Numbered from the stretch's first letter, positions 4,221 to 63,312 are shown. The stretch is DNA of 64,000 nucleotides from Candidatus Zipacnadia bacterium (GCA_029821635.1 JALGSW010000042.1:19202-83201), one strand, 5' to 3'. Program-made: numbers and translations. The notes: generated by a model not told the origin, from the sequence alone.

Positions 4221-4262
4221 GGCAACGGCCGACGCATCCAAACGGCGGATGCGTCGCTCCAA
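4221..4262. repeat. family D element: 9-bp stem palindrome with AAACGGC loop (GACGCATCC-AAACGGC-GGATGCGTC), flanked by AACGGC repeats
   Basis: ggcaacggccgacgcatccaaacggcggatgcgtcgctccaaacggcaacggcg. Confidence 0.8.
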
Positions 4263-4282
4263 ACGGCAACGGCGTGACGGCT

Positions 4283-4303
4283 GACGGGCTGGAAGCCCGT
4301 CCC
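4283..4303. repeat. family B palindromic element (GACGGGCTGGAAGCCCGTCC) followed by AACGGC/GACGGC hexamer repeats
   Basis: Stem GACGGGC/GCCCGTC with loop TGGAA. Intergenic between the DUF721 gene and rtcB. Confidence 0.85.
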
Positions 4304-4325
4304 ACAAACGGCGACGGCGACGGCT

Positions 4326-4973
4326 CTAATGCGGCTGGAAGAAGGCGGACAGGCCCTCGTCGCCGCCGGCCTGAGAGGGGCGCTCGCGGGGGTGGCAGGA
4401 GAGGCACCACTGTGCGCTCTCCAGGTGCCACGCTCCGCAGCCGGGGCACTGGACGAAGCCGTGCTGCGCACGCCAGACCGCCAGCTTCGCTTGATACAGC
4501 AGCAGGCGCTCGAGGCGCTCGCCCATCTCCCCCTCGACATCACTCACCAGTTCCAGGATCTCCCGGATGCGCTCGGGCGGCACGTGAAGCGCGTCCAGCT
4601 CATCCTGCGCGGGCGCCGCCGGACCCTCAGGCTCCGCGGGCGCGAGATCATCCATCCGGCGGCCGATGCCGGCGCTGCTGGGCCGGATCTCGTCCACCAC
4701 GTCCTCACCCAGCGCCTCGTTGACGCGCCCGATGATGGCCGGCGCGTCGAGCTGCAACTGCTGGGCGCGCGGCGCCGACTCGCAGCGGATGTAGAGCGTC
4801 CTCCCGCGCAGGCTCACAACGTAGGTGTGCAGGGCATACCACTCGCCCGCCACGCGCGGCCAGACCATCATGCACAGGGACTCGCGCGACTCGTCGAGCA
4901 GCCCCACGCTCTTGAGGAAGACCTGCAGCGCGTGGCCGGCCTGTTTGATCGGATTGCTGCGGTCGTTGGGCAT
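4326..4973 (-). CDS. DUF721 / DciA-like zinc-ribbon protein (gene family typically found between recF and gyrB)
   Basis: ORF 4326..5102 trimmed to internal MPNDRSNPIKQ... Position immediately downstream of recF and sequence character fit the DUF721 family. The N-terminal extension of the ORF consists of G-rich palindromic repeat sequence. Confidence 0.55.
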   Translation of the reverse strand: MPNDRSNPIKQAGHALQVFLKSVGLLDESRESLCMMVWPRVAGEWYALHTYVVSLRGRTLYIRCESAPRAQQLQLDAPAIIGRVNEALGEDVVDEIRPSSAGIGRRMDDLAPAEPEGPAAPAQDELDALHVPPERIREILELVSDVEGEMGERLERLLLYQAKLAVWRAQHGFVQCPGCGAWHLESAQWCLSCHPRERPSQAGGDEGLSAFFQPH

Positions 4974-4994
4974 GCTTTCCCAGCTCTTCCTGTC

Positions 4995-5117: not shown

Positions 5118-6260
5118 CTACTCCTTGCCCTCGCACGGCTCGCAGGTTGCGTCGTCGGCGCCGCTGCCGATCAGGTGCGCGTCGGCAAGGCGGTCGGCGA
5201 GGTGCTCCGGGCAGCACGCGCTCGTAACGATCATCTGCTCGTGGTCGCGGCTCAGGTCGAGCATCGCCGCGCCGCGCGCCGGGTCCAGCTCCGAGAGGCA
5301 GTCGTCCAGCAGCAGGATCGGCTGCTGCTCGGTGCGGGCGAGTGCCACGCGCGCCTGGGCGAGCTTGAGCGCCAGCGCCGCCGTGCGCTGTTGGCCCTGC
5401 GAGCCGAAGCGGCGCAGATCGACGCCGTCGATCTCGAGCAGCATGTCGTCGCGATGCGGCCCGACCTGCGTGGAGCGGCGGTCCAGCTCGCGACGATGCG
5501 TCTCCTCCAGCGCGCGGTAGAACTCGTCGGCCAGCTCACCGTCCGCCTGGGAGTTCACCACCGATGGCTCGTAGCGCACGCTCAGGCCCTCGGCGCCAAC
5601 GCCGAGGCGCTCGTGCAGCGCGGCCGCCTCGGGCGCGAGCGCGGCGAGGTAGTCGCGACGGTCGATCGTGATCGGCACGCCCGACTCGACGAGCGAATGC
5701 GTCCACGGGGCGAGCATGCGGCCGTCGCCACCGCGGTGCGCCATGCCCTTGAGGACCTCGTTGCGCTGGCGCAGCGCACGTCGGTAGCGCGCGAGGTCAT
5801 CGAGGTAGCGCGCGCTCATCTGCCCGAGCGCGGCGTTGAGGAAGTGCCGCCGCTCGGCAGGCGACCCCTTCACCACGTCCAGCTCGCCGACCCAGAAGAG
5901 GATCGCCTGCACGCGTCCGATGATCTCACGCGCGGACGCGACCTCGCGCCCGTCGATCTCCAGCGTCTTCGCGCCCGAACGGTCACCCGAAGGATCGCCG
6001 AGGGTGGTGCGCAGCGTCAGCTCGCGGCCGTCCACCACGAAGCGGCCTGTGACGCGGCCCCAGCTCTGCCCGTGCCGGACCATCGTGCGCGCCCGCCCGC
6101 CGCGCGCCGAGGTCGTCGTCGCCAGCAGGTAGATCGCCTCGAGGATCGTGGTCTTGCCGGAGGCGTTGGGGCCAAGGACCACGTTGAGGCCCGGCCGGAA
6201 GTCAAGCTCCGCCCGCTCGTAGCATCGGAAGTTCTCCAGAGTCAGCGATTGCAGGAACAC
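5118..6260 (-). CDS. recF: DNA replication and repair protein RecF
   Basis: RecF N-terminus VFLQSLTLENFRCYE and Walker A GPNASGKTT. Likely GTG start at 6258-6260 with GAGAGGA upstream. The track ORF extends to 6365 but would overlap the upstream gene by 83 nt. Confidence 0.85.
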   Translation of the reverse strand: MFLQSLTLENFRCYERAELDFRPGLNVVLGPNASGKTTILEAIYLLATTTSARGGRARTMVRHGQSWGRVTGRFVVDGRELTLRTTLGDPSGDRSGAKTLEIDGREVASAREIIGRVQAILFWVGELDVVKGSPAERRHFLNAALGQMSARYLDDLARYRRALRQRNEVLKGMAHRGGDGRMLAPWTHSLVESGVPITIDRRDYLAALAPEAAALHERLGVGAEGLSVRYEPSVVNSQADGELADEFYRALEETHRRELDRRSTQVGPHRDDMLLEIDGVDLRRFGSQGQQRTAALALKLAQARVALARTEQQPILLLDDCLSELDPARGAAMLDLSRDHEQMIVTSACCPEHLADRLADAHLIGSGADDATCEPCEGKE

Positions 6261-6282
6261 GGCCCGAGTCCTCTCGCGGCGC

Positions 6283-7491
6283 TTAGCCGAAGTCGCGCCA
6301 GAGCGCGTCGATGGCGAGCATCGCCTTGAGCCCCCACAGGTGGCACCAGGTGTTCTGATAGTCACCTGCGACGATGTAGCCGTAGTTCACGCCCGCCGGG
6401 TAGTGCGTCAGGATCGCCTGCTCCATGTAGTCGAGTGTCTCGTCGATCCACTGCAGGTAGCGCGCATCGTCGGTCGCGCGATAGCCGAGCGCGCAGCCGA
6501 CCATGATCTGCGCCATGCGGTCGTAGACGCAGACCGCACCGGTGCCGGTCGTCGCGCCATCGCCGACCATCGGCGGGGCGCTCGGGTCCGACCAGTCGCG
6601 CGTGTTGTGCCGATACCAGCCGCCCTCGGGGGAGCGGCTGTGCTCGGCGAGTTGGTCCAATGCCTCAACCGCGCGGTCGCGGTAGGCGTCGCCGCGGCCC
6701 GCGAGGTTGAGCCGGAAGCACGCCTGGATCATGTTCGCGTTGGTGTGCGTGTGCTTGACCGTGCGCTTCGGCGGGCCATTGCCGGCCTTGCCTGCGTAGA
6801 ACCAGCCGCCGAACTCGTCGTCCCACATTGCGGCGTCGGCGAGGTCCACGACCGTCTGCGCGTAGTCGAGGAAGCGCTGCTCGCCGGTCGCCTCCCACGC
6901 GTCCAAGAGCTTGAGCGCGAGGTAGCTCGACCGGTAGAGTTCCTGCGACCGGTCCGGCTGGAAGGCAGCGGTCCCCACGATGTGCGCAAGCACGTTCTCC
7001 GCCGCGTCCGCGAACTCTGGTGTGGGTCGCAGGCGGTCGTAGCGCAGGAGTGCGGCCACGCTGATCATGTTGAACTCGGGGAAGAAGTTGGTCTGCCACT
7101 CCGCGGTGTGCATGTTCCACTTCAAGTAGAACTGGCGCTGCCCGGCATCGTAGCCGTTGGCGATGACCCACGCGAGCAGGTCATGCGCGTGATCGAGATG
7201 GCGCGGGTCCTGCGACAGCTCGGCTATGTCCATCTTGACCGAGGCGAAGAACGACTGCTGCTGGGTGTGGAAGTTGCCCTCATTCGGCTCGGTGGGTGGC
7301 ATTGAGCGGCTGTTCTGATGGATGGCGCGGCCGTCGAGCACGTCGTGCCAGATGTAGGCGTCATCGACCGCGAGCATCGAGGCCATGCGCAGTTGCACCC
7401 AGTTGCGCGAGTGCTGCAGCAGCGGTTCGGCGGCGGCAGATGAGGCGATCGCCGCGACGAGGCAGATTGTCGGGACAAGACTCAGGCGCAT
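6283..7491 (-). CDS. secreted six-hairpin (alpha/alpha-toroid) glycosidase-like protein, possibly GH76-like
   Basis: ORF 6283..7569 trimmed to MRLSLVPTICLVAAIASSAAAEP, a signal peptide. WDDEFGGW and other aromatic-rich motifs are typical of alpha/alpha-toroid glycosidases. Family assignment is tentative. Confidence 0.5.
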   Translation of the reverse strand: MRLSLVPTICLVAAIASSAAAEPLLQHSRNWVQLRMASMLAVDDAYIWHDVLDGRAIHQNSRSMPPTEPNEGNFHTQQQSFFASVKMDIAELSQDPRHLDHAHDLLAWVIANGYDAGQRQFYLKWNMHTAEWQTNFFPEFNMISVAALLRYDRLRPTPEFADAAENVLAHIVGTAAFQPDRSQELYRSSYLALKLLDAWEATGEQRFLDYAQTVVDLADAAMWDDEFGGWFYAGKAGNGPPKRTVKHTHTNANMIQACFRLNLAGRGDAYRDRAVEALDQLAEHSRSPEGGWYRHNTRDWSDPSAPPMVGDGATTGTGAVCVYDRMAQIMVGCALGYRATDDARYLQWIDETLDYMEQAILTHYPAGVNYGYIVAGDYQNTWCHLWGLKAMLAIDALWRDFG

Positions 7492-8713: not shown

Positions 8714-8944
8714 TACGAAGGTCCTCCTCGCATAACCCGCGCAGAGAGTGGGAATACAACGACCAAGTTAACCGCATCTGCGCTGATGCGTCAAGACAAT
8801 TCGTTCCAGGACCAGGCAATACCTCCACCTGTCAGAAAAGCTGTGTAGCTATCGGAGCAGACACGACAGGCCTCTGAATCGGACAGCTTTCCACGGCGGT
8901 AGTGGTACGTCGCGACCTCTTTAATACCTTACTACTACTCCTAC

Positions 8945-9160
8945 TACGGACGTGGAGAGCGTGGAGAAGCGAGCCCCCATCACCGAAGCTGCACACGTCC
9001 GCTGAAGGCAACCTGAAGGCGCTCTTGTGGACGCCCGTGGAGAACACTCAGGGGCCCGGCCGGACTCGCGCGTGACGGCTCCCGAGCGGGTGAAGGTACG
9101 TGGAGAGCGTGATCGCTCTCTTCGCGTGGACGATGTGGAATATGTGCGAGCGGCCTCGCG
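8945..9160. promoter_or_regulatory. dense array of (C/T)GTGGA motifs upstream of dnaN (degenerate high-GC-type DnaA boxes?)
   Basis: At least 7 copies in ~200 nt: cgtggagag (x2), cgtggagaa (x2), tgtggacgc, cgtggacga, tgtggaata. Two copies of the 13-mer acgtggagagcgtg. Confidence 0.35.
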
Positions 9161-9265
9161 GGCCGCTGGGCAGAACCGGAAGAGAAGGAGCGCACAACCA
9201 GGCGGGTTGTCTACAGTACCCACAGCGGAAGTGGGGTCAGGAGGTTCTCCCCACAGAGTCCAGAC

Positions 9266-11613: not shown

Positions 11614-11759
11614 GGATGACAACCCGTCCTTTGCCGTGAATGTGGGCGCGCAGCGGGAACCTCGGAAGGCCCCTCCGCGGGGCGGGCGGGTGCCGCTCGT
11701 AGTGAGCGATCAGTGGTGCGATCGGTGCTGTCGATGAATGCGCGCGAAGCGCGACTGCG

Positions 11760-12110
11760 ATGAGTTTCGGTGGAAAACATCGGCCTTCGTCTGCGGCCGG
11801 CACGGCCCCAGGCCGTGTCTTTCTTGACCGGCGAGGTTTTCCACATCGTTATCCACACTTGTGGAAAACCTTCGTCACCCTCCCCACGTGGGCAGAGTAT
11901 ACCAGAACCCAAATCGCAATGCAAAGGGAATCTGGGAAATCCCCTGATTCCGTGATACATGGCTATGAGAGGCCTCTACGGGCAATATGGGACTGCGTTG
12001 GGGGCCCCGGCAGGCGGTGCAGAGGAAAAAAATCTCCTGTCCATAATGTTGAAAACCTTAACGATGGTGGAGAGACGAAACGCCCATTCTGCGACGAAAA
12101 CGTGTCAGTC
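11760..12110. other. candidate oriC / dnaA autoregulatory region (DnaA boxes + AT-richer stretch)
   Basis: 640-nt non-coding gap upstream of dnaA. It contains the box cluster, further GTGGAAAAC and TGTCCATAA variants, and locally lower GC (gaggaaaaaaatctcctgtccataatgttgaaaacc). Confidence 0.5.
11837..11868. promoter_or_regulatory. cluster of three DnaA boxes (TTTTCCACA, TTATCCACA perfect, TGTGGAAAA inverted)
   Basis: Read directly: ggTTTTCCACAtcgTTATCCACActTGTGGAAAAcc, ~225 nt upstream of dnaA. Confidence 0.7.
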
Positions 12111-12262
12111 TCGTGCTTTCCGGCGGACGCATGCTGCTGAAGGGAGCAACGAGCTCGGCCTGCCCGCCCGCTGCCGCGCGGTTTGTGGGAAGGCGGAGTG
12201 TAACCTCCGCAAAGCGCGGGGACACTTCAGAAGCTCCTGGGCCCGACGCCCGGGACCGCCCC

Positions 12263-15506: not shown

Positions 15507-16523
15507 ATGCTCTACCTGACAACCGAGGGCCCCGACCGCGAGCGAGGTGTGCAGCATGGCCGGAAGTTCGGCGTGGAGATCCGCCGCGCGCTCCAGCACG
15601 CCCGCTGGGCCGACGGCGGCTCCGCGGCCGAGCGCGAGGCCGCCCAGGCCATGTGGGCGTGGCTCAACGACCACCAGCCGTGGCTGGCACAGGAGATCAC
15701 CGGCATCGCGCAGGGGGCCGAACTGCCGCTCGACGCCGCCCGGCACCTGAGCCTCTTCTCCGCCACGCGCCAGTTCGGCGAATGCACCACGCTCGGTTTC
15801 TGCGACTCCGATCGCGGCCCAATCCTGGCGAAGACCTTCGACATCGGCGCCCAGCGCGATGTGTATCTGCTGCACCGCGTGCGGCCGACCGGAGGCTACA
15901 GCTTCCTGCGCGTGAGCTGGGCCGGGAACGTCTGGGCGCCGACGGGCATCAATGAGGCCGGGCTGGCCGTCGGAGGGTCATCAACGCCCGCGCTGCCCGA
16001 CCAGGACCCCTACGCGATGCCGTGGCACCTGACGCTCAACGCAGTCCTGCGCGAGTGCGCGACCAGCGCGGACGCGGTGGCGCTGCTGGCGTCGATGGAC
16101 CTCGCGGGCAAGGGGCATAACTACGCGATCATGGACGAGCAGGGCGACGGGGCGCTCGTGCAGAAGTGCGGCGACCGGCAGGCGGTCGTCACACCCGAAT
16201 GCGACGTGATCTGCGGCACGAACCACTACACGACGCCGGAGTTCGAGGACATCCCCGCGCCGACGGGTGACGCAGGGCACAGCTCCCTCGCGCGGCTGGC
16301 GTGGATGCGCGAGACCTTCATCGAGAGCAGCGACCGCCCGCGGCCGACGCTGCAGGGCCTGATCGACGCAGTGCGCCACGACGAGGGCGACGGGCGGCTC
16401 TGCCGCAAGGGGTTCCTCGGCGGGCACACACACTACGCGATGGTCTACGTGTGCCGCGAGCGGACGATGCTGGTGAGCGACGGCTACCCGTGCGAGACGG
16501 AGTTCGTGCCGCATACGGTGTGA
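15507..16523 (+). CDS. peptidase C45 / acyl-CoA:6-aminopenicillanic-acid acyltransferase-like Ntn hydrolase
   Basis: G-C-T-T autoprocessing site (QFGECTTLGF) and overall similarity to the IAT/C45 family. GGAGG upstream. Confidence 0.7.
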   Translation: MLYLTTEGPDRERGVQHGRKFGVEIRRALQHARWADGGSAAEREAAQAMWAWLNDHQPWLAQEITGIAQGAELPLDAARHLSLFSATRQFGECTTLGFCDSDRGPILAKTFDIGAQRDVYLLHRVRPTGGYSFLRVSWAGNVWAPTGINEAGLAVGGSSTPALPDQDPYAMPWHLTLNAVLRECATSADAVALLASMDLAGKGHNYAIMDEQGDGALVQKCGDRQAVVTPECDVICGTNHYTTPEFEDIPAPTGDAGHSSLARLAWMRETFIESSDRPRPTLQGLIDAVRHDEGDGRLCRKGFLGGHTHYAMVYVCRERTMLVSDGYPCETEFVPHTV

Positions 16524-16600: not shown

Positions 16601-16699
16601 ACTGCACAGGCTACGGCGACGGCAGGGATCGGGGGCGGGGGGAGAGGCCCGTGCGCACAGGACTGATCAAGGCGCCCGCCGAATCGAGAGAGTGAGACT

Positions 16700-17828: not shown

Positions 17829-18782
17829 ATGAATGAGACCGGAGACGGGCAATCCACACGGGCTGCCGGATTCGCGGCGGCCCTTTTCAGCGGCGCGGTC
17901 ATGGGCGTCACGTGGCCGCTGCAGAAGTACGTGCTCGCGCAGGGCGTCGTCGGCCCGGCGACGATGCACTGGCTCAACGTGATCGGCCTCGTCGCGATCA
18001 TGGCGCCGATCTTCCTGATCCGCCATAGAGGCCGGCTGCGCTACCCCGGCTTCTCCCCGCGCTGGCTGCTGCTGGTGGGCCTGGTCGCCTGTGTCATGCA
18101 CTTCTGCCGCAAGTGGGGCGTGAACGAGACCTCCTCCACCACCGCTGCGGTGGCCGAGCGCTCCGAGGTCGTCTTCGTCTTCATCCTCTCCTACCTGATC
18201 CTGCACAAGCCTGTGCGGCCGATCGGGTGGCTGGGAACGGTCCTGGTACTCTTCGGGACGATCACCGTGGCGCTCGTGGGCTCGGCGGAGCTGCACTTCC
18301 ACCCGCTGGGGGTCATCGCGCTGGCGATCACCGGCCTGACTGTTGCCGTCAACGCGACCATCATAAAGACGAAGCTCAGCGGCATCCCCAACGAGCTGAT
18401 CATCCTCGGCAGCATGGCGGTGCAACTGGTCGTATTCAGCGCGTGGGTGACCGGCGGTGGGCTGCTGCCCGAAGTGCGGGCGTTGATGGGCGTCCCGATG
18501 CTGGCCGCGCTGGTGGGCATGGGCTCGGTGGTCTGGGGCGGGAATCTGGCGATCTACTACTTCGCGCTCAAGCACGCGCCGATGTGGGCGGTGCGGATGC
18601 TCACGCTCAGCGGCCTGCCGGTGGCGACGCTCGCGGACCTGTGGGTGCTGCACGAGCCGGTGACGACCGGGCACGTCATCGGGCTCGTGGCGGCGATGGT
18701 CGGGGCGGGGCTGGTGATCCTCGCGGAGCGCAACGGCTGGAACGACGACGACGGGCTGGAAGCCCGTCCCACAAACGGCTGA
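17829..18782 (+). CDS. EamA/DMT family transporter (10 TM)
   Basis: Hydrophobic 10-helix pattern with two EamA halves. The last 10 codons (DGLEARPTNG) and the stop are supplied by a REP-like family B element. Confidence 0.8.
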   Translation: MNETGDGQSTRAAGFAAALFSGAVMGVTWPLQKYVLAQGVVGPATMHWLNVIGLVAIMAPIFLIRHRGRLRYPGFSPRWLLLVGLVACVMHFCRKWGVNETSSTTAAVAERSEVVFVFILSYLILHKPVRPIGWLGTVLVLFGTITVALVGSAELHFHPLGVIALAITGLTVAVNATIIKTKLSGIPNELIILGSMAVQLVVFSAWVTGGGLLPEVRALMGVPMLAALVGMGSVVWGGNLAIYYFALKHAPMWAVRMLTLSGLPVATLADLWVLHEPVTTGHVIGLVAAMVGAGLVILAERNGWNDDDGLEARPTNG

Positions 18783-18800
18783 CGGCAAACGGCTGACGGC
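18750..18800. repeat. family B element + (AAACGGCTGACGGCA)x2 tail; forms the 3' end of the EamA gene
   Basis: gacgggctggaagcccgtcccacaaacggctgacggcaaacggctgacggcaagcggc. Confidence 0.85.
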
Positions 18801-18823
18801 AAGCGGCGCGGGGTAGAGTTCGG

Positions 18824-19756
18824 ATGCGGATCGATCAGGACCCACGATGGACACGGATGGCGGGCTACATAGCGGCGCTGCTCTCAGGCATCGTCATGGG
18901 TCTGTCGTGGGTGATCTTCAAGCTCGAGCTGAACCTCGAGGAACTCGGCCCAGCCGACGTGAACTGGCTCAACATGATCGGCGTGGCCGCGATCATCTGG
19001 CCCGTCTACCTGATCCGCAACCGTGAGCACCTGTTCCCGCGCGGGCAACCCTACCGCTGGCTGCTGCTCTTCGCGACCCTCGCAGCCGGCATCTTCTACC
19101 TGCGCAACATCGGCGTGGACCTGTGCGGCCCCACCACCGCCGCCATCATCAGCCGCACCGAGACCGGCTTCGTCTTCATCCTCTCCTACCTGATCCTCCA
19201 CCAGGCCGTAAGCGGTCTCGGCTGGATCGGCACCGCCCTGCTGCTGGTCGGCGCGATGCGCACCATCGGCATCGGCTCGGTGGGCCTGACCTTCCCGCTC
19301 GCAGGCGTCGCCGCGCTGGCCGTCGCCGCCGCGCTCATCGCACTCAACGCGGTCATCATCAAGACGCAGTTCAACAAGGTGCCCAACGAGCTGGTCATCC
19401 TCGCCAGCGCGACCGTGCAGACGATCGTTTTCTCGATCGCGGTGCCGGCGTTCGTGGGACTCGACGGCGCGCGCTACGTGCTCGCACACCCGCACGCCAT
19501 GCGGCTCGTGGCGCTCGCGTCGCTGGGGATCGCCGGGAACCTGTTCCTGTACTACTACGCGATGAAGCGCGCGCCGATGTGGGCGGTGCGGGTGCTGGCG
19601 CTGGTAGCGCTTCCCGCGGCCGTCGCGGGCGACTACTTCGTGCTTGGCCAGCCGATCACGACGGACGCCGTGCAGGGGATGGGGCTGGTGATCGCCGGGG
19701 CGCTTATCGTGATCCACGCGGGCCGGCGGCGGAACGGCGACGGCAACGACTCTTAA
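18824..19756 (+). CDS. EamA/DMT family transporter, tandem paralog
   Basis: Clear paralog of the preceding gene (…ISRTETGFVFILSYLILHQ… vs …AERSEVVFVFILSYLILHK…). The stop TAA lies within a family C repeat (TAACAGG). Confidence 0.8.
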   Translation: MRIDQDPRWTRMAGYIAALLSGIVMGLSWVIFKLELNLEELGPADVNWLNMIGVAAIIWPVYLIRNREHLFPRGQPYRWLLLFATLAAGIFYLRNIGVDLCGPTTAAIISRTETGFVFILSYLILHQAVSGLGWIGTALLLVGAMRTIGIGSVGLTFPLAGVAALAVAAALIALNAVIIKTQFNKVPNELVILASATVQTIVFSIAVPAFVGLDGARYVLAHPHAMRLVALASLGIAGNLFLYYYAMKRAPMWAVRVLALVALPAAVAGDYFVLGQPITTDAVQGMGLVIAGALIVIHAGRRRNGDGNDS

Positions 19757-19830: not shown

Positions 19831-19889
19831 GCAGAACAGGTGAACGGCGACGGCTGGTTCTGCATGGTGCACGGGATGTTGAGATGAGC

Positions 19890-21081: not shown

Positions 21082-21143
21082 TGTCGTAGTCGTACGTAGG
21101 ACAGGCCTGTCAATTCTGTTCGTGAATCGAGTAACCGACAACT

Positions 21144-55050: not shown

Positions 55051-55175
55051 GACACGTTCCCCTCTCGTTGTGCTCGCGACAACGACCGCAGGCTGGAATG
55101 CCTGAAGCGCAGAGCGCTTTGCGCGAGTTCGCTTCGCGAACGTCGATGCTCCACGAACGGCACGAACGGACATCT

Positions 55176-55199
55176 GACAGGCTGGAAAGCCTGTCCTAC
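55176..55199. repeat. family A palindromic element; supplies the TAG stop of the giant gene. A degenerate copy lies at 55088-55110
   Basis: gacaggctggaaagcctgtcctac. Confidence 0.8.
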
Positions 55200-58100
55200 A
55201 GCACCGTATTCGTCAGCATCACCGCCGAGATGCGCGCGCCGTCCTCGCGCGCGAGGATGCGGACGGTGTGCTCGCCCGCGTCGAGCTTCGCCGTCGGGCC
55301 CTGGGTCCACAGCCACTCGCCCATCCGGCCCGCGTTGCCGAACTCCACCGGGTCGGCGTCGTCGATCTGCGCGTAGAACGAATTGCCCTTGTCATCGAGC
55401 CACCAGCAGTGCCCGAGCAGCGTGTACTCGCCCGCCGTCGGGAGCGTCAGCGTCCACGTGGCCGAGCCCGCGTCATCAGCGGCCTGCCAGGGGCTCGGGT
55501 TGAAGCGCACGTCGCGCGGCACGTGGATGAAGCGCATCCCGCCGTCGTCGTCGATGGCGAACGGCTCCGTGAGCGCGGCTGCGTCCGCCTCGGACTGCTC
55601 ACGCACCATCGACTCCACGACGCGCACCGTGAAGTCGCGCTTCCACGTGCGGTCGCCGCAGGTAATCTCCAGCAGCGAGTCTGCCGAGCATGGCGCGGTC
55701 CCGTCGGGCGGACAGGCGGTGACGGTGGCGGTCGCGGTCTCGCCCGGCCCGATGGTGAGCGTGGTCGGCTCACACGCGATGCGCAGGAGCTCGGAGGTAC
55801 CCCGGAGCGTTGCCTCGACCGGCTCGTCGGTGGTGTTGCGCAGTTGCACCTGGCCCTGCCACGGCTGGTCCGGGCAGCAGATCGGGATGCTGTCGGGCAG
55901 GAGGACCTCCAGCGGCGTGATTCGCGGCTGCACGTGCGCGAGCGAGGAGTACATCCACGAACACGAGCGCGAGCTTGGGCCGGTCATGCTCAGCAGCTCC
56001 TCGGTCAGCGTGCCGAACCAGTCATCGCCGGTGTAGCGGTAGGGGTAGCTGAGCGCGCCCGTGCACTGGGTGGTGGCGCTGTAGCCGGTCTTGCAGCGTG
56101 GCGCCTGCTTGTACCAGAAGCGCGCGGGCGGCCCCATCGGCTCGGTGGTCAGCCACTCACCGACGCCGAGGCACATGCGCATCGCGCGCTCCTCACCGGT
56201 GGCCTCGTAGAAGCGCCCGAGGCCGCGGCCGAGGATGCCGTGCATGAATGCGGTGCCGCCCTCGTAGGAGGGCTGCTCGGAGATCGGCACGCTCACCACG
56301 CCGCGCACCGGGTCCTGGATCGTCGCCATCCAGTCGAGGATCGAGTCGCCGGCGGCCTTGTAGCGCTCGTCACCGGTCATGCGGTAGAGGCTCGAGAGCG
56401 CGATGAGCGTCCAGCCCGGCCCGCGCTCCTGGCCGCCGGCGCCGTAGCGACCGTTCTCGACCGTCCAGACGTACCAGTCGCCCATCTTGCGCGCGGTCTC
56501 CTCGGCGCGCACGTCACCGGTGAGCAGCCAGTAATCCAGCAGGCCCTCGACCCACGAGTGGCCGTTGCTCGCGCCACCGACGCAGTGGTCCGGGAACCAG
56601 CCCTCGTCGACAATATGCCTGGAGTTGTGATGGTGCGGGGCGCCGATGAGATGCTCGCGGCCCGGGGCCCAGTGGTAGCAGTCCGTGGCTTCGTAGTGCC
56701 GCGCGGCCTCCTCACCGATCTCGAAGTAGCGCCGGTCACCGGAGCGGAACCACTCCACGAGGAAGCCGTGATGGTGGTCATACTCCTGGTTGCTCCAGAA
56801 CGTGTAACTCGGCCCGTAGCCCCACTCGAAGGTGTCGTCCCCGTAGTTCTCCATCCCGTACTCGCTGCGCTTCTCGCGCTTGGCCATGTAGCCCTCGTGG
56901 AGGTGGTCGATGGCCTCCTCGTAGCGCGGGAAGAGGAACTCGTTCTCGGCGGGCATCTCACCGAGCGCCAGTGTGCCGACTGCGTAGCGCGAGTCGGACG
57001 CAGCGATGAGACGGTCGCGGAAGGCCTCGAAGGCGTCGGCCGAGTTCGTGTCCGTGCCTGCGGGCTCGAAGCCCAGCATCACCTCATGCGTGATGCCCTC
57101 GCCCTGGTAGAGCACGAACGGGCCGTCGGAGAACTGCGTGTGGCTGTCCATCGGGATCAGGTCGAGCGCGATGCCGCCCGCGCCAACCTCGACGGCCTTC
57201 GGCCACTTCTCCCACCACCAGCGGGTGGCGACGGCGAGCGCCGGGCCGTTGCCGCCCGTGGGCGCGAGGCGCGCGAAGCCCTGCGTGCGAACCTGCTGTG
57301 CGGCGGGACCATCGGCGCCGATCGTGCCGCTGTCAAGCTCGAGCTGGCTGCACGAGGCGGACGCGCCGGAGGCGGGCGCGTCATCGCCCCAGACGGTCGC
57401 CTGCGCGCCATCGCCCGCCCACGGGCAGGGCATGTTCAGCCGCACCTGCCGGAGCTTCTGCGTCTCCGTGTCCTCCTTGTGCGTGAAGACGTAGCTCAGG
57501 CGCGTGGTCGGCGAGCCGAGGTAGAACTCCTGGATGATGTCGAACTCCAGCAGCGTCGAGCCATCTTCGGCGGTGTGCCGGCCGATGCGCCGGATCACCG
57601 CGCGCAGCGGCCCAGCCTCGATCACCTGCGTGTCGGTGACCTCGCCCAGCGCGGAGGAGTATTGCGTGCCATCCTCGGCGGTCACCAGCGCGGCCCACGG
57701 CTCATCGCCGATCATCTGCGTGCCGTCGAGCACCGCGCTGTCCACGAGCGTGCCGCGGGTGGTGCTCAGCGTGGCCTGCAGCGGCCCGGTGTTCACGGCG
57801 ATGCGGCCGTCCTGCTCGTTGACGGTCAGTATCCGCCCCGGGAACTCCGCGGGCCGCACCTGTGAGCCGAACTCGACGGTGTACTGCGCGTTCGCATTGG
57901 CATCGACCGACGCGGGGAAGCTCACCAGCGCGAACATCACTGAGCCGTCGGGCCAGGAGTTGAGCGCCCGCGCCTGCACCGGGACCTCCGCGCCGGAGGC
58001 GTCGAGCACGCGCAGATTCCGCGCTGAGGTCAGCGCCCCGTACGCGAAGGGCAGGCCCTGCGTGGCGACTTCGCCCGAGCGCGCGACGCCCGCGTGGTCG

Positions 58101-59836
58101 CTGACGGTCATCGTGAACGAGTCGCGCGCAGGCTCCTCGCCCGGCTGGTAACACGGTGGCTCGATCGCGACCTCCTCGCGCACGGGCTTGCGCTCGACCA
58201 GCTCGCGCGGGAGCAGCGCGATCTCCTCGACGCGCATGACCTCCGTGCGGTCGCGCGTGGCGTCGAGGCGCACCTCGTCGCCGCGATTGACCTGCACCGG
58301 GCCGAAGACCGCGTGCCACTGCCCGTAGTCATCGGCGGTCATTTGCACCTCGCCGACCTGCTTCCCGCCAACCGACAGCCGCAGTCGCGACTGGCCGGTG
58401 TGGTCGTCGCGCAGGCCGATGGCGGCGTAGTACTGGCCGCTCTCGCCGGTGAACGGGCGGCGCAGCGAGCCCTCCGGCGCGCCGATTTGCATCGCGCCAT
58501 CATCCTCGGCGAAGCCCTCGGCCTCCATCTGCCGCGCGGGGATGCGCTGGATGCCCGGGAACATCTCGACGCCCGCCCAGAAGACCTCGGTCAGGAAGGG
58601 CTTCTCCGTGCCCTGGCGGTCGCGCACCTGCAGGGAGATGGTGACCTCGTCCTTGCCGCGGATCGCGTTGGAGATGTCCGCGAGGTAGAAGCGCCGGTCG
58701 GCCGGGCGGGGGTTGCGGCCCAGCACGTCCATGTCCCAGACCTGCTCGCCATCGACGAGCACTTCGCAGAAGCGCATATCGCGCTTCTTGTTCTCGTAGG
58801 TGGCTACAGCGCGGTCACCCTCATAGTCCCTGTCCACGCCGCCGCAGTAGTCATCGGAGACGTAGAAGCGCAGGTAGCAGCCGCCCTCGGCGTCCACGGG
58901 GACGGTGCGGCTCACGCGCCCGAAGGCGCCCTCCTCGGTGTCCTCGTGCGGGTGCGAGATCGTGAAGACCGCCCGGCGGTCGGGCTTGCCGGTGAACTTG
59001 CCCTGCGACTCGAAGGTCCAGCCTGCGCCTTGGCGCCCGTCGTCGAGCGGCCACGCGCCGCCCGCGGTGGGCTCGGGCAGCAGGTCGGAGACGCTGCGGT
59101 GGTAGCACTCGGGCACGGCGCTCGCTCCTTCCGGCCAGTCGGGGGAGTGTGAGAGCGCATACGTGACGAGGTTCGCGAACAGCTTCGCGCCGGCGGAATC
59201 GGGCCCGTCGCCATCGCTGAACCAGGCATGCTCGGGGATCAACTGCGTCAGCACGATCCGCCCCATGCCATACTCAAGCTCGATCATCCCGTAGTGCTCG
59301 CCATCGCTGGCGGCGGGCTCCGCGTCCCAGCCCTGCTGCTTCCCGGCGCTGATGAGTGGCACCCAGCCCTCGCCCAGGTCGTACCAGGCGTCGTAGATGC
59401 TGCCCATGTGGACCTGCAGGAGCGTCTCGCGCGTGAGTTCGTTCGGCTGGTGGAAGATCGGGTGGTCGGGCACGAGGACCTCGCCGAACTCGTACGAGCG
59501 ATCGTTCTTCGCGGGCACGGGCAGCCACGCATCGGCCCTGCGGTTGCGCATGCCGAGGAAGACGCCGCCGCTGTCGACGAAGCGCCGGAGCCTGGTAGGC
59601 GAGTCCTTGATGGGCGAGCGGTCCTCGTCCATGGCGCTGATGATGACGGTGTAGTCGAAGATGTTGATGCGCCCGGCCTTGTAGTCGGGCCAGGTGGTCT
59701 GCTCGAAGGGGATGTCGAGGGCTTCAAGGGCGGACGCGGTCCCGCCTCCGCCGACGAGCAGCACGCGCGGCTCGGCGGCAAGGACCGCACTCGCTACGAG
59801 CAGGACGATCAGCGCGACGGTCAGTGTGCGGGTCAT
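55196..59836 (-). CDS. giant secreted multidomain protein (1546 aa): ThuA/GATase1-like N-domain, heparinase-II/III-like or six-hairpin central region, C-terminal CBM-like domain
   Basis: ORF 55196..60079 trimmed to MTRTLTVALIVLLVASAVLAA. His/Tyr-rich region (…YDHHHGFLVEWF…APHHHNSRH…) resembles lyase/hydrolase toroids. Domain calls are tentative. The stop TAG lies in a family A repeat. Confidence 0.6.
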   Translation of the reverse strand: MTRTLTVALIVLLVASAVLAAEPRVLLVGGGGTASALEALDIPFEQTTWPDYKAGRINIFDYTVIISAMDEDRSPIKDSPTRLRRFVDSGGVFLGMRNRRADAWLPVPAKNDRSYEFGEVLVPDHPIFHQPNELTRETLLQVHMGSIYDAWYDLGEGWVPLISAGKQQGWDAEPAASDGEHYGMIELEYGMGRIVLTQLIPEHAWFSDGDGPDSAGAKLFANLVTYALSHSPDWPEGASAVPECYHRSVSDLLPEPTAGGAWPLDDGRQGAGWTFESQGKFTGKPDRRAVFTISHPHEDTEEGAFGRVSRTVPVDAEGGCYLRFYVSDDYCGGVDRDYEGDRAVATYENKKRDMRFCEVLVDGEQVWDMDVLGRNPRPADRRFYLADISNAIRGKDEVTISLQVRDRQGTEKPFLTEVFWAGVEMFPGIQRIPARQMEAEGFAEDDGAMQIGAPEGSLRRPFTGESGQYYAAIGLRDDHTGQSRLRLSVGGKQVGEVQMTADDYGQWHAVFGPVQVNRGDEVRLDATRDRTEVMRVEEIALLPRELVERKPVREEVAIEPPCYQPGEEPARDSFTMTVSDHAGVARSGEVATQGLPFAYGALTSARNLRVLDASGAEVPVQARALNSWPDGSVMFALVSFPASVDANANAQYTVEFGSQVRPAEFPGRILTVNEQDGRIAVNTGPLQATLSTTRGTLVDSAVLDGTQMIGDEPWAALVTAEDGTQYSSALGEVTDTQVIEAGPLRAVIRRIGRHTAEDGSTLLEFDIIQEFYLGSPTTRLSYVFTHKEDTETQKLRQVRLNMPCPWAGDGAQATVWGDDAPASGASASCSQLELDSGTIGADGPAAQQVRTQGFARLAPTGGNGPALAVATRWWWEKWPKAVEVGAGGIALDLIPMDSHTQFSDGPFVLYQGEGITHEVMLGFEPAGTDTNSADAFEAFRDRLIAASDSRYAVGTLALGEMPAENEFLFPRYEEAIDHLHEGYMAKREKRSEYGMENYGDDTFEWGYGPSYTFWSNQEYDHHHGFLVEWFRSGDRRYFEIGEEAARHYEATDCYHWAPGREHLIGAPHHHNSRHIVDEGWFPDHCVGGASNGHSWVEGLLDYWLLTGDVRAEETARKMGDWYVWTVENGRYGAGGQERGPGWTLIALSSLYRMTGDERYKAAGDSILDWMATIQDPVRGVVSVPISEQPSYEGGTAFMHGILGRGLGRFYEATGEERAMRMCLGVGEWLTTEPMGPPARFWYKQAPRCKTGYSATTQCTGALSYPYRYTGDDWFGTLTEELLSMTGPSSRSCSWMYSSLAHVQPRITPLEVLLPDSIPICCPDQPWQGQVQLRNTTDEPVEATLRGTSELLRIACEPTTLTIGPGETATATVTACPPDGTAPCSADSLLEITCGDRTWKRDFTVRVVESMVREQSEADAAALTEPFAIDDDGGMRFIHVPRDVRFNPSPWQAADDAGSATWTLTLPTAGEYTLLGHCWWLDDKGNSFYAQIDDADPVEFGNAGRMGEWLWTQGPTAKLDAGEHTVRILAREDGARISAVMLTNTVL

Positions 59837-59930
59837 GGTGAGTGCCTCCTGATAGCTGCGAACGACGTCGTTGCCCAGTCGTATGGAGGGGAGGGGCTTC
59901 AGCCGCTCCCACGTGCTCCGATACCCCCCA

Positions 59931-59990
59931 ACGGCCGACGCATGTAAACGGCACATGCGTCGCTCCGAACGACAACGGCGGAACGGCGAA
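59931..59990. repeat. family D element (GACGCATGT-AAACGGC-ACATGCGTC) with AACGAC/AACGGC tail
   Basis: acggccgacgcatgtaaacggcacatgcgtcgctccgaacgacaacggcggaacggcgaacggc. Same architecture as 4221-4262 with a compensatory change in the stem. Confidence 0.8.
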
Positions 59991-59994
59991 CGGC

Positions 59995-60879
59995 TCACTC
60001 GCAGATCGCCTGAAGCTCCGCGAGGCGTTCGGGTGACTGGCGCTGCGCGTCCGGCAGCGGGTCGGGTAGGCCCAACCATGAGTACTTCCCGCCCGTCGCC
60101 GGGTTGAAGGGCAGAAGCTCAATCCGCTCCACGCCGAGGCTCCTTGCCAGCGTCGCGATCTCGCGGACCGCCTCGTCCGTGTCATTCACGCCCGGGATCA
60201 GCGGCACGCGCACCAGCACGTCCGCGCCGCTCGCGAGCAACGCCCGCAGGTTCGCGATGATCTGCTCGTTCGGCGCGCCCGTGTACGCCTCGTGGGCCGC
60301 CGAGTCCGCCAGCTTCAGATCGTAGAGCCACAGGTCCAAGGCCTCGGCGAGGCGCTCGATCGTCTCCCATGGCGCGAGCCCGCAGGTCTCCAGCGCCACG
60401 TGGATGCCCGCGTCGCGGCAGAGGCTCGCGATGGCGTGCGCGAAGTCGGCCTGCGCGGTCGGCTCGCCGCCGGTGATCGTCACCCCGCCGCCCGTGCGCG
60501 CGAAGAAGGGCGTCAGGCGCGCTGCCATGTCGGCGATCTCGCCCGCGGTCGCCTCGCGGCCCTTGACCTCCAGCGCGCCCGCCGGGCAGGCCTCGATGCA
60601 CGCGCCGCACAGCGTGCAGCGCGCGCGATCCTCCGGGGCGATCAGCCCCGGTCGGCGGATGCGCTGCGGGCAGGCATTCACGCACGCGCCGCAGTGTGTG
60701 CAGCGGGTCTCGTACCAGACGATCTCGGGCGCGAATGCCTGCGACTCGGGGCTGTGACACCACGCGCAGTGCAGCGGGCAGCCCTTCAGGAAGACGGTCA
60801 TACGCACGCCGGGTCCATCGTGCAGCGCGGTCTGGTCGATATCGAAGATCGTGCCGGTCACATCGCGCAAGTCCTTCAC
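59995..60879 (-). CDS. glycyl-radical enzyme activating protein (radical SAM with ferredoxin-like insert)
   Basis: GCPLHCAWC (CxxxCxxC) followed by CTHCGACVNACP and CTLCGACIEACP motifs. GTG start overlaps the GRE stop (GTGA) with GAGGAG upstream. The rest of the track ORF is antisense overlap. Confidence 0.8.
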   Translation of the reverse strand: MKDLRDVTGTIFDIDQTALHDGPGVRMTVFLKGCPLHCAWCHSPESQAFAPEIVWYETRCTHCGACVNACPQRIRRPGLIAPEDRARCTLCGACIEACPAGALEVKGREATAGEIADMAARLTPFFARTGGGVTITGGEPTAQADFAHAIASLCRDAGIHVALETCGLAPWETIERLAEALDLWLYDLKLADSAAHEAYTGAPNEQIIANLRALLASGADVLVRVPLIPGVNDTDEAVREIATLARSLGVERIELLPFNPATGGKYSWLGLPDPLPDAQRQSPERLAELQAICE

Positions 60880-63164
60880 CAGCCCAACTCCTCGCGCGCG
60901 ATGACTTCCTCCTGCGCGTGCTTGCTCAGCAGCACGAAGGGCACGAGGTAGCCGCCGATGCGCACGAACAGGTCGCGGTGCGCGTCGGGATTCGCCTGCG
61001 CCGCGCGCATCTGCTCGGTGGAGGCGAGGTTGAACTGAAGCTGGTAGGCGCCGAGGTCCATCGCGGCCTCGGTGAGGCCCTTGAGCGCGTCGGCGCCCTC
61101 GTCGGTGTCGAGCACACTCGCCTGGAAGCGCACGTTGCAGGTGGTGCCGCCGAGCCCGCGCGAGTTGTCGAACTCGTCGGTGATCGAGCGTACCAGCGCC
61201 GGGAAGCCGTTCGTCTGCACGCCGGTGCAGTTCATGATCGAATTCGCCAGCGGCTCGCCCGCGAGGCGGCCGTCGGGTGTGGCGGGCGTGCGCTCGCCGT
61301 AGGCGATCCAGACGGTCCAGCCGAGGAAGCCGGGCAGGAACGGGCCTCCGAGGTAGTTGCGGTTGCCCTCGACCAGGTCCGACCAGCCCCCCGCGACTTC
61401 GCCGAAGAGCCGGTTGCACTGGGCATCGTCGGTCCCATGCTTGGGGCAGTCGCGCTTGATCGCGCGGCGCAGGTCGTCGTGGCCGCGGAAGTTGTCGCGG
61501 ATCGCCGAGCGGAAGTTGTCGAGCGTGTACTCGCCGCGCTCCTCGACCAGCGTCTGCACCGCCGCGAGCGCGTCCACCACGTTCGACGCGCCGACCGCCT
61601 CGGGCTGGATGAAGTTGTAGAGCGCGCCGCCGTCGGACATGTTCCGGCCGCTCTCGATGCAGCCCTCGATGAGGCACGAAAGCAGCGGGAAGGGCCGGTG
61701 GATCGACTGCAGCCACAGGTCGCGGTTGCACTGGATCACCGCGCCATCGACCGCATGGGCCAGCACGCGCTCGTAGGCGTGGCGGAGTTCGGCGTACGTT
61801 GTAGGACAGGCTTTCCAGCCTGTCAATGTCCTACGAACGGCCCAACTGGCGGGCGGGTCGGTCAGCCGCAGGCCGACGTCCGCCGCGAAGTCATCGGCAT
61901 GGCCCTTCTCCGGGTGCACGCCGCCGAAGAGCGCGTACTCCAGGCACATCGCGAGGTTGACGTAGGGCCATGCGACGTGCGGGTTGCTGCGGCCCATGAT
62001 CGAAGTCTCGGTGCAGGTGCTGGGCAGGTGATCGACCGCGTGCTCGAAGGGCACGCCGTGCCGCACGAGGCCCTTCGTGATTTGGTCGGAGTTGAAGATC
62101 GATGGCTGGCCCTTGCCGTTGCGCAGCAGGGCCATCGCGTGGCGCATGAACTGCGGATCGATGTCCGCGTGCCACGAGATGTCGATGCCGGGGAAGTACA
62201 TCTCCACCCGATCGGTCAGCTCGAGGATGCGGAACGAAAGCTCGTTGGTGCCGTCGGAGCCGTCGGGCTTGCGGCCGCCGATCACGAGAATCACAGCGCT
62301 CATCGACGGGCCCTGGAACTCGTTGCACTTGATCATGAGCTGGGCCAGCAGGTCCTCGGTAAGCGCCTCGTCGAGCGTGCCCGCATCGCGTTCGGCCTCG
62401 TAGAAACGCCGCAGCCACTGATCGATGCGCCCCGGGCCGAAGCAGTGGTGATGCTGGGAGTTCTCCAGCGCGCAGCCCATGAACATGAACCAGCCGAGCT
62501 GGATCGCCTCGCGGAAGCTGCGCGGCGGCTCGTGGGCGATCTGCCGGCAGGTCGCGGCGGCCTCGCGCAGGTCATCGGCCCACGCGGGATCGGTGGCGTC
62601 GTCGGCCATCTCCTGCGCGAGGTCGGCGTAGCGCTCGATGAGCCGCTGCAGGCCGCCGAGGGCGATGCGCGCGGCCTCGTAGAAGTGCTGCTTCGCAGGC
62701 GTCTGCGGGTCGTCGGGCCGCAGCGCGTGCTCGGCGTCGTCGATGCGCTCCATGATGCCGCCGAGGCCCTGCTTGCACGCGGTCGGGTAGTCCGGCGCCA
62801 TGTGCCCCTCGGAGACGAAGCCGCGCCACTGCTCACGCCCGAGGTAGGCGTTCGCCTCGGCGATCTCCGCGGCGAGGGCCTCATCGGCGTGCGTGTTCGG
62901 GTGCCGGCCGACGAGCCTCTCGCCCTCGCGGATGCGCACGGGCATCTGCTCGAAGAGGTGCGCGACGGCCTGCGCCACGCGTATCTGCCGGCGCGGCTCA
63001 CCCTCGGTGGCGCGGAAGCTCTCGGCCATGATGATCGCGCGCTCGTCGAAGGCGCCCCCGTCGGCGAGGACGTCCTCGCGCAGCGCGCGCGACCACTCCG
63101 AGAGCCCGTCGGGGCCTACGGGGCGGGGCAGGGCGTCGGTTGTACGATCTGCGACGGTTGCCAT
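60876..63164 (-). CDS. glycyl radical enzyme (PFL-like / 1,2-diol-dehydratase-lyase family)
   Basis: ORF 60876..63644 trimmed to MATVADRTTD (ATG 63162-63164, GAAGGAGA RBS). Cys-loop LIEGCIESG. Glycyl motif FVRIGGYLVPF near the C-terminus. Contains an in-frame family A repeat at ~61795-61840. Confidence 0.8.
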   Translation of the reverse strand: MATVADRTTDALPRPVGPDGLSEWSRALREDVLADGGAFDERAIIMAESFRATEGEPRRQIRVAQAVAHLFEQMPVRIREGERLVGRHPNTHADEALAAEIAEANAYLGREQWRGFVSEGHMAPDYPTACKQGLGGIMERIDDAEHALRPDDPQTPAKQHFYEAARIALGGLQRLIERYADLAQEMADDATDPAWADDLREAAATCRQIAHEPPRSFREAIQLGWFMFMGCALENSQHHHCFGPGRIDQWLRRFYEAERDAGTLDEALTEDLLAQLMIKCNEFQGPSMSAVILVIGGRKPDGSDGTNELSFRILELTDRVEMYFPGIDISWHADIDPQFMRHAMALLRNGKGQPSIFNSDQITKGLVRHGVPFEHAVDHLPSTCTETSIMGRSNPHVAWPYVNLAMCLEYALFGGVHPEKGHADDFAADVGLRLTDPPASWAVRRTLTGWKACPTTYAELRHAYERVLAHAVDGAVIQCNRDLWLQSIHRPFPLLSCLIEGCIESGRNMSDGGALYNFIQPEAVGASNVVDALAAVQTLVEERGEYTLDNFRSAIRDNFRGHDDLRRAIKRDCPKHGTDDAQCNRLFGEVAGGWSDLVEGNRNYLGGPFLPGFLGWTVWIAYGERTPATPDGRLAGEPLANSIMNCTGVQTNGFPALVRSITDEFDNSRGLGGTTCNVRFQASVLDTDEGADALKGLTEAAMDLGAYQLQFNLASTEQMRAAQANPDAHRDLFVRIGGYLVPFVLLSKHAQEEVIAREELGW
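61801..61824. repeat. family A palindromic element located inside the glycyl-radical-enzyme CDS, in frame
   Basis: gtaggacaggctttccagcctgtcaatgtcctacgaacg. Translates on the gene strand as …RRTLTGWKACPTT… without a stop. Confidence 0.8.
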
Positions 63165-63201
63165 GATCGGTCTCCTTCGCGTGAATGCGAACGACAACAG
63201 C

Positions 63202-63245
63202 GACGGGCTGGAAGCCCGTCCTACAAACGACGTAACGTCAACGAC
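63202..63245. repeat. family B element with AACGAC tail, between the GRE start and the sulfatase stop
   Basis: aacgacaacagcgacgggctggaagcccgtcctacaaacgacgtaacgtcaacgacg. Confidence 0.85.
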
Positions 63246-63249
63246 GTCG

Positions 63250-63312
63250 TTCTCCCCCTCTCCCGCTTGAAACCGCGTCGTTTGCGGTTTCCAGGGAGAG
63301 GGGGCCGGGGGG
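63250..63312. repeat. family E nested palindrome: CCCCCTCTCCC-[GAAACCGCG-TCGTTTG-CGGTTTC]-GGGAGAGGGGG
   Basis: tctccccctctcccgcttgaaaccgcgtcgtttgcggtttccagggagagggggccgggggg. Confidence 0.75.

Follow-up and report, generated by a model that had tools for sequence, protein, structure and literature searches.

Repetitive extragenic palindromes (REPs) are described by Di Nocera, De Gregorio and Rocco (2013, PMC3733652) as elements that supply stop codons to genes, form several families in one genome, avoid divergent spacers and have in-frame copies within genes. According to Nunvar (2010, PMC2817692), the defining feature of such systems is the presence of genes for REP-associated tyrosine transposases (RAYTs) flanked by inverted REPs. 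In the 64,000 nt stretch of Candidatus Zipacnadia bacterium analyzed here (GCA_029821635.1, JALGSW010000042.1:19202-83201), referred to below as the window, about 27 small hairpin elements were found at 14 loci; the original prediction had counted about 22, and these are real. We consider it probable that the elements are REPs of an Armatimonadota bacterium, and that two of the families, A and B, are GTAG-tagged REPs dispersed by a RAYT.

The closest described counterparts of A and B belong to the GTAG-tagged REP superfamily (PMC3733652), which includes families of the Planctomycetes-Verrucomicrobia-Chlamydiae (PVC) superphylum such as GTAG-20 of Opitutus terrae, with GTGG heads. Common to both are a short palindrome that has GTAG or GTGG unpaired at one end, subfamilies told apart by complementary changes in the stem, multiple families, siting between co-directional or convergent genes, TAG stops coming from the tag, in-frame copies, and RAYT genes flanked by REPs ("REPtrons"), the latter in our case in relatives. 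On the other hand, Armatimonadota are not among the phyla named in the available part of that paper, co-oriented ACGGC/AACGRC flanks are not described there, and the intragenic REP peptides it gives for O. terrae and R. baltica (e.g., VGPALAAG) differ from the TGWKACPT of the present hairpin. Its supplement contains no sequence that matches the A/B stem, searching the full text of the literature for the hairpin sequence gave unrelated primer matches only, and a literature search on Armatimonadetes and REPs found no description. Only the oriented AACGRC context and the families C, D and E, which lack an assigned enzyme, go beyond the REP literature.

Copy numbers were tested by pattern search of the window against shuffled controls. 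Family A (GACAGGCTGGAAAGCCTGTC) has seven copies, six exact and one with two mismatches, where shuffles expect 0, and family B (GACGGGCTGGAAGCCCGTC) has four exact copies against 0.1 expected; these counts, as well as those of four for family C and two for family D, agree with the predicted ones. Two decayed relics of A were also recognized, at 21096-21115 and 55085-55104. Both families form a stem of 7-8 bp with a loop of 3-6 nt (dG -9 kcal/mol as DNA; z = -4.8 for A and -2.2 for B). Read on the opposite strand, A is GTAGGACAGGC-TTTCC-AGCCTGTC and B is GTGGGACGGGC-TTCC-AGCCCGTC, which gives a pattern of GTAG or GTGG plus GACRGGC-loop-GCCYGTC, that is, an unpaired head followed by a 7 bp palindrome. 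Between A and B, a compensatory change replaces an A·T with a G·C pair, and one base of the loop is different; the two are subfamilies of one REP family. The unpaired head is GTAG in all A copies, and in B it is GTGG twice and GTAG twice. When the 59 perfect hairpins of the window were listed without bias, GTAG was the commonest flanking tetranucleotide (eight cases), and GTGG was found in three.

Copies of A are evenly split between the strands. On the plus strand are A1 (21144-21167; GACAGGCTGGAAAGCCTGTC-CTAC, with the GTAG head on the minus strand), the degenerate A2 with its two mismatches (21181-21205), A3 (22968-22991), located between the convergent Prx (+) and URO-D-like (-) genes, and A6 (55176-55199). 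In the minus orientation are A4 (39552-39575; GTAGGACAGGCTTTCCAGCCTGTC on the plus strand), 23 nt past the stop of gene 38422-39528, A5 (40310-40333), between convergent genes, and A7 (61801-61834), an extended palindrome (GTAGGACAtt…TGTCCTAC). Of the relics, that at 21096-21115 (-) has lost its loop (GTAGGACAGGCCTGTC) and, being inverted with respect to A1, builds with it a doublet similar to a REPIN (REP doublet forming a hairpin), while that at 55085-55104 (+) is a degenerate A-like hairpin (GCAGGCTGGAATGCCTG). All four B copies are in plus orientation: B1 (4277-4312; GACGGGCTGGAAGCCCGTC-CCAC-AAACGGC, with the GTGG head on the minus strand), B2 (18742-18779), B3 (31469-31506) and B4 (63194-63231), the last between a sulfatase stop and the start of the gene for a glycyl radical enzyme (GRE).

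The same hairpin is present far outside the window. One genome per species was scanned, 596 Gb in total, with the loop, the 3′ arm and the tag fixed and the 5′ arm left free, and the hairpin was found at at least 115 genome loci in Planctomycetota, Verrucomicrobiota, Lentisphaerae, Desulfobacterota, Acidobacteriota, Chloroflexota, Armatimonadota and others. By our own estimate, tens of chance matches (35-136) are expected in such a pattern-only scan. However, the free 5′ arm was GAC in 114 of 134 matches, and position 4 of the stem covaried (A-T in 95, G-C in 25, other in 14), so the matches across phyla are genuine copies of a single hairpin. When metagenomes were scanned for the REP together with an AACGRC tail, 51 contigs were obtained, which, along with the 14 separate loci in the window, speaks against confinement to one local duplication, the outcome that the original prediction had named as its refutation.

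The enzyme expected for such a system was found in relatives. Among the contigs and loci of other genomes compared with the window (given here as L numbers), L159 and L148 each encode a 179-residue protein that passes the NCBIfam model NF047646, REP-associated tyrosine transposase (84.8 and 91.7 bits, respectively; cut-off 80), and also matches Pfam Y1_Tnp. Upstream of either gene there are a REP in head-first orientation and GCCGTT-type words, and downstream of it a tail-first REP and AACGGC-type words. In L170, a RAYT gene likewise lies between inverted copies of the REP; this locus shares synteny, in the form of an acetate kinase and Mbh-type hydrogenase gene block, with L116, which is related to the window. 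The arrangement used by Nunvar to define these systems is therefore present in the lineage, although not established for the genome of the window itself. The encoded RAYTs are distant from the characterized ones and have a modest Pfam Y1_Tnp score. A search for their homologues gave 46 relatives, among them L170 and several named RayT by the Joint Genome Institute, mostly on very short contigs; lengths below 5 kb, found for the majority of related RAYT contigs, suggest that the repeats break assemblies. Immediately behind the RAYT unit of L148 (reverse complement, 850-1060) stands a copy of it that has lost the open reading frame (ORF) by internal deletion but retains both REP ends and the last RAYT codons, and that looks like a REPIN or a miniature inverted-repeat transposable element (MITE) caught at birth.

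Several side observations concern REPs and RAYTs in other contigs. In L171 (1031-1110), the REP downstream of the RAYT gene is split by a palindromic insert of about 50 nt (GACAGGCTGGAAAGCC[…]TGTCCTAC). L099, a Pirellulales metagenome-assembled genome (JAXMBK010000003), holds around positions 6000-7000 eight tandem repeats of about 166-168 nt, each with the REP hairpin, possibly within a gene. In L169 (7084-8010), a RAYT 51% identical to that of L159 has at its flanks another GTAG-tagged element, a double hairpin (GCGTAGGTCGAGCGTCTCGCTCCACGCCGACCGGGACGGTCGGCCTACGCGG), from which it follows that RAYT and REP change together. In L104 (Lentisphaerae), the REP hairpin is about 260 nt away from a RAYT gene whose product is only about 25% identical, and flanking of that RAYT by REPs is not established there.

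The distribution of the copies among related genomes also resembles that of known systems. The window holds 11 A/B copies and the two relics, at 10 loci, while the orthologous regions of L116, whose GRE is 85% identical, and L117, a syntenic Armatimonadota bin, are without A/B sequences and have other hairpin variants at comparable places. Homogeneity within a genome combined with difference between genomes is typical of REPs. It is shared with the REP/BIME-RayT (TnpA-REP) system of E. coli, where BIME stands for bacterial interspersed mosaic element, and with the REP-RAYT and REPIN-RAYT systems of Pseudomonas and Stenotrophomonas (PMC2817692; Bertels and Rainey 2011, PMC3116915), as is the RAYT ORF between two inverted REPs; the RAYT-less, internally deleted doublet of L148 recalls a REPIN. 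Unlike those systems, in which doublets or alternating BIME arrays occur, most elements of the window are singletons.

This last difference is one of several points that weigh against RAYT-dispersed REPs. REPIN or BIME doublets and regularly alternating arrays were not found as the prevailing form in the window, where most copies are single and inverted pairs occur only at 21096-21167 (the relic and A1) and 59855-59980 (two units of family D). A search for a RAYT gene had been advised in the original prediction; none was detected in the window by a motif screen and by tblastn with three RAYTs, and its successful part concerns the related contigs L159, L148 and L170; for this genome, a cognate RAYT and the number of copies in the whole genome are deduced from relatives. 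An all-against-all BLAST of related contigs gave no clean pair of filled and empty sites: orthologous sites all keep the REP and only the neighbouring modules vary, so that mobility itself is presumed. Families C, D and E have no GTAG head, and no Y1 transposase gene was seen beside any of their copies in about 1.1 Mb of loci. Finally, the copies of B, C and D lie 10:0 on the plus strand regardless of gene direction, which a REP model does not predict.

In regard to placement, 23 of the 27 elements fall in the non-coding 7.3% of the window (binomial P about 1e-22), and the remaining four are in frame inside genes. Eleven co-directional and three convergent spacers are occupied, just as the original prediction had stated for most copies, and the only occupant of a divergent spacer is a half copy. 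Three loci are truly intragenic, and several copies that had been given as intergenic sit within over-long ORFs. In those cases plausible starts with Shine-Dalgarno sites lie downstream of the element, and the copies are only seemingly intragenic because the longest ORFs run through them. Elements are open in five of six reading frames, therefore neighbouring ORFs run into them or borrow a TAG, TAA or TGA from them. The predicted cases of element-supplied stops were all found: the TAA codons of genes 18824-19756 and 24391-27201 share the first two bases of a C element; the TGA of 17829-18782, the first of two EamA genes (EamA1), falls within the AACGGC tail of B2; the A5 stem overlaps by 2 nt the stop of the minus-strand gene 40332-42011; and the CTAC/GTAG tag of A6 is the TAG stop of the minus-strand gene 55196-59836. 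As the TGA of EamA1 lies in the B2 tail, the last ~10 residues of its product (DGLEARPTNG) are encoded by the element. The two genes (17829-19756) are tandem paralogues of EamA-family transporters with 45% protein identity, each with its C-terminus running into a repeat element.

Intragenic in-frame copies, also foreseen, comprise A7 in the GRE gene, E3 together with B3 in the DUF4838 gene, and B2 at the 3′ end of EamA1 (…DGLEARPTNG*). At A7, the 54 nt segment 61797-61850 encodes ASWAVRRTLTGWKACPTT and the frame is unchanged on both sides; in the public annotation there is one identical protein of 762 residues, insert included. The site belongs to a variable part of the GRE, about 33 residues in length and peculiar to the clade, with which solved GREs do not align, and in the structure model the A7 segment has a local pLDDT of 66 compared to the mean of 87. 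At the same site, L116 carries a decayed hairpin (AGGACAG…CTGTCC), and L117 has 25 extra residues made of another hairpin and a D-like unit; a hairpin with the sequence GCAGGCATCCCTGCCTGC, known from a spacer of the window, is also in frame inside the L117 GRE. With hairpins at this site in all three genomes, the loop is a recurrent landing place. E3 and B3 (…RQTGWKPVLQTT…) add about 38 residues, in frame, to the N-terminal part of the DUF4838 protein when this is compared with its best homologue P0121. Such cases, in the GRE and the DUF4838 protein, are clean examples of translated REP sequence inside enzymes, relevant to protein evolution. For annotation in this lineage, it matters that the elements rarely contain stops and inflate longest-ORF calls, so nearby starts and C-termini need care. 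In-frame palindromic insertion that does not destroy the gene is known from Rickettsia palindromic elements (RPEs) and is seen here in the GRE, the DUF4838 protein and the EamA1 C-terminus. RPEs are longer, about 100-150 bp, and, unlike them, most copies in the window are intergenic. As sequence family and length are unrelated, the likeness to RPEs is one of behaviour and not of membership.

A different explanation of this placement is that the hairpins are RNA elements selected by the host, i.e., terminators or mRNA stabilizers at 3′ ends, that resemble each other through shared function and not through enzymatic copying. Most copies do lie directly past the stops of co-directional or convergent genes, and stems covary while tags stay fixed (D1 compared to D2, G1 compared to G2), so structure is what is conserved. 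However, none of the copies read is followed by a T-tract, orientation relative to transcription is mixed, and copies are also found in 5′ leaders and within genes. In the 19 kb scanned for terminator-like sites (13-32 kb), five were found against 4.7 expected and no A, B or C copy was flagged; the suggestion that the hairpins serve as terminators is not supported in its simple form, and no family resembles an intrinsic (Rho-independent) terminator. A stabilizing hairpin, moreover, does not need identical copies of 24-37 nt with loops and unpaired tags, and would leave unexplained why RAYT genes of relatives lie between inverted copies. Host-selected RNA elements are thus an unlikely explanation of the pattern, although a 3′ stabilizing role for the elements is possible.

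If A and B are indeed RAYT-dispersed REPs, then, by analogy with the described systems, the hairpin would form on single-stranded DNA and would there be bound and cut by the RAYT, an HUH/Y1 enzyme. The gene of this RAYT would be located in another part of the genome with an inverted REP on either side, and its product would both disperse and homogenize the copies. These would persist where they are harmless, namely in spacers after co-directional or between convergent genes and in variable surface segments of proteins. Families C, D and E, whose plan is that of A and B, pile up in these permissive spacers as well. Any effect on transcript 3′ ends would be exerted through a plain stable hairpin and not through an intrinsic terminator.

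Families C, D and E can be described as further families of tagged hairpins, each with a conserved tag (C ACAGGAT; D GYCGTWCGGAG; E GGGGWSAS) and a variable, covarying stem. When representatives of the families were folded as DNA, z ranged from -2.2 to -4.8 against shuffles, with the exception of the short E2 (z = -0.7). Family C, defined by a 30-mer (AACAGGATTCGGCGCTGCGCGCCGACAGGA), has its four exact copies, where shuffles expect 0, all in plus orientation and bracketed by ACAGGAT words; in related contigs, such words are seen at the sides of hairpins whose stems differ. C1 (13822-13873) contains the hairpin TCGGCGC-TGC-GCGCCGA with ACAGGAT words at its sides and lies between a sulfatase stop and the start of an Fer4 gene, while C2 (16549-16600), a double hairpin, begins 25 nt past the stop of gene 15507-16523. 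C3 (19755-19830) consists of two different hairpins with ACAGGA words between them, its first two bases finishing the TAA of the second EamA gene (EamA2), and C4 (27200-27251) finishes in the same way the TAA of gene 24391-27201 and is followed by a stack of small hairpins.

The two D copies are 85% identical across 65 nt, and their stems differ in two adjacent compensatory base pairs (CC/GG to GT/AC). D1 (4223-4274, +) is the hairpin CGACGCATCC-AAACGGC-GGATGCGTCG with the tail CTCCAAACGGC, situated between the stop of DciA and the start of RtcB, both on the minus strand. D2 (59929-59980, +) is composed of CGACGCATGT-AAACGGC-ACATGCGTCG and CTCCGAACGAC, and its AACGGC tail abuts the stop of the radical S-adenosylmethionine (radical-SAM) activase gene. 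A third, inverted D-like unit, absent from the earlier list, is D3 (59855-59905, -; GGGAGCGGC-TGAA-GCCCCTCCC plus CTCCATACGAC-TGGGCAACGAC), which is followed immediately by the Shine-Dalgarno site and the start codon (ATG) of the PcRGLX-like gene. Across related contigs the family generalizes to a variable stem plus CTCC[GA][AT]ACGRC. The motif CTCCATACGRC-TGGGCAACGAC was seen immediately upstream of a Shine-Dalgarno site in two genomes, before the PcRGLX-like gene in the window (59855-59905, -) and before the GRE gene in L116 (1-57), and may be a leader element or merely a D-type unit.

Family E (CTCCCCCTC...GGAGAGGGGGyCGGGGGGwGAGG) exists, with three full copies and one partial copy, fewer than the at least five that had been claimed. 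The partial one is E1 (16625-16650, +; GGGGGCGGGGGGAGAGG). E2 (19888-19935, +) reads CTCCCCCTC…GGAGAGGGGGTCGGGGGGAGAGG, E3 (31397-31466, -) lies in reverse orientation and in frame within the DUF4838 gene, and E4 (63250-63320, +) is a nested hairpin of 70 nt with the end CCGGGGGGTGAGG, at a distance of 7 nt from the stop of the sulfatase gene. L117 and L027 also have E-like units, in which the inner hairpin varies.

It could also be that C, D and E are separate from the RAYT/REP system, being repeats of the terminal inverted repeat (TIR) type that flank genes of TIR-associated tyrosine transposases (TIRYTs) or decayed ends of some other miniature transposon, and merely accumulate together with A and B. 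Family E forms long inverted repeats, and its terminal sequence (GGGGTGAG or GGGGAGAG) agrees with the consensus GGGGWSAS of TIRYT-flanking TIRs as given in PMC3733652, but the likeness concerns an 8 nt motif only. The own conserved tags and variable stems of C and D across related contigs, and the E-like units with exchangeable inner hairpins, would fit a separate origin as well. Contrary to it, the lack of any Y1 transposase gene beside C, D and E in the fetched loci extends to TIRYT genes, none of which adjoins an E copy in the loci examined, and the AACGRC context of A and B is common to all three families. We therefore hold an independent system for C, D and E to be improbable. The proposal of a multi-family REP/RPE-like system thus stands for A and B, while for C, D and E neither an enzyme nor a common origin or common binding protein is demonstrated.

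The AACGGC/AACGAC signature pointed out in the original prediction is real and co-oriented with the repeats. Within 60 nt on the 5′ side of A/B copies, nine AACGRC-type words in sense and one in antisense orientation were counted in the window; in the 51 related metagenome contigs the ratio was 70 to 21 in the 5′ flank and 33 to 5 in the far 3′ flank. REPs from other phyla have almost no such words. The AACGRC words are hence specific to the lineage and share the orientation of the REP. From the consensus ACGGC-W-[hairpin]-CYAC-R-AACGGC it follows that an ACGGC word stands on each side of the hairpin, in direct orientation. That the words, which stand in direct orientation around all hairpin families, are the target or cleavage site of the RAYT, or its footprints, is a tentative idea that we consider rather unlikely. 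If true, one enzyme would mobilize a modular cassette of word and hairpin with a swappable stem, and families with different stems and tags in one shared context would be explained. Separately, the 23 nt REP hairpin, nearly unchanged in many phyla, could represent a very old or horizontally spreading REP specificity, an idea to which we attach the same low weight. With these findings, a REP/RAYT system is assigned to the Armatimonadota, whose members are known for the most part as metagenome bins. A new biological question opens only if the AACGRC flanks prove to be part of the transposition chemistry.

An origin of the pattern as a by-product of GC-rich low-complexity sequence or of local duplication is next to inconceivable, since despite the GC content of 69% and the 35-136 chance matches estimated for the genome scan, only 0-0.1 matches are obtained when the window is shuffled, pairing of the stem bases left free in the pattern is seen in 114 of the 134 cross-phylum matches, and the 14 separate loci have unrelated flanking genes.

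Chance palindromes were also rejected as a candidate. A CRISPR array was rejected because kilobases separate the copies, which stand at gene boundaries and in either orientation, and a MITE with TIRs and target-site duplication was considered and rejected. In the whole window, Rfam covariance models gave zero matches at the gathering score, and ARAGORN found no tRNA genes.

Beyond the earlier list, GTGG-headed hairpins were recognized. Family G is represented by G1 (35546-35572, -; CCGTGG-TGCGGACG-CCTC-CGTCCGCA-CAG), which fills the 41 nt spacer of convergent genes, by G2 (23047-23072, -; CCGTGG-CACGGGCG-TCT-CGCCCGTG-CAG), with the head 5′ on the plus strand, and by a half copy (38334-38348, +), the reverse complement of CCGTGGTGCGGACGC, in a divergent spacer. 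One more such hairpin, with the sequence GCAGGCATCCCTGCCTGC, was found at 27390-27413 (-; GTGG-AGCAGGC-ATCCC-TGCCTGC). The GTGG-headed hairpins G and F are probably GTAG-tagged REPs, too. The GCAGGCATCCCTGCCTGC hairpin is included in the spacer 27252-27471, 220 nt without coding signal that consist almost entirely of small unrelated hairpins.

The window as a whole contains dnaA, dnaN, recF, a DciA-domain gene, RtcB, sulfatases, the GRE with its activase and many polysaccharide-related genes. The low-GC spacers 11623-12262 and 8714-9265 adjoin dnaA and dnaN. The former is probably oriC, since it includes, near 11852, a DnaA box without mismatches (TTATCCACA) as well as several words similar to GTGGAAAAC, and the latter contains repeated ACGTGGAGAGCGTG. 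Because dnaA and a DnaA box are in the window, a link between element orientation and the origin was considered; GC skew shows no sign change at the dnaA region, and only two elements lie beyond the putative origin. The URO-D-like gene (23107-24240, -) is buried in an antisense open frame of 1,386 codons, and a listing of longest ORFs misassigns the region. At 60876-63987, the GRE and its activase stand beside a sulfatase, an arrangement kept in the Armatimonadota bin L117. The closest homologues of this GRE are in Armatimonadota metagenome bins, and its nearest solved relatives are glycerol and hydroxyproline dehydratases.

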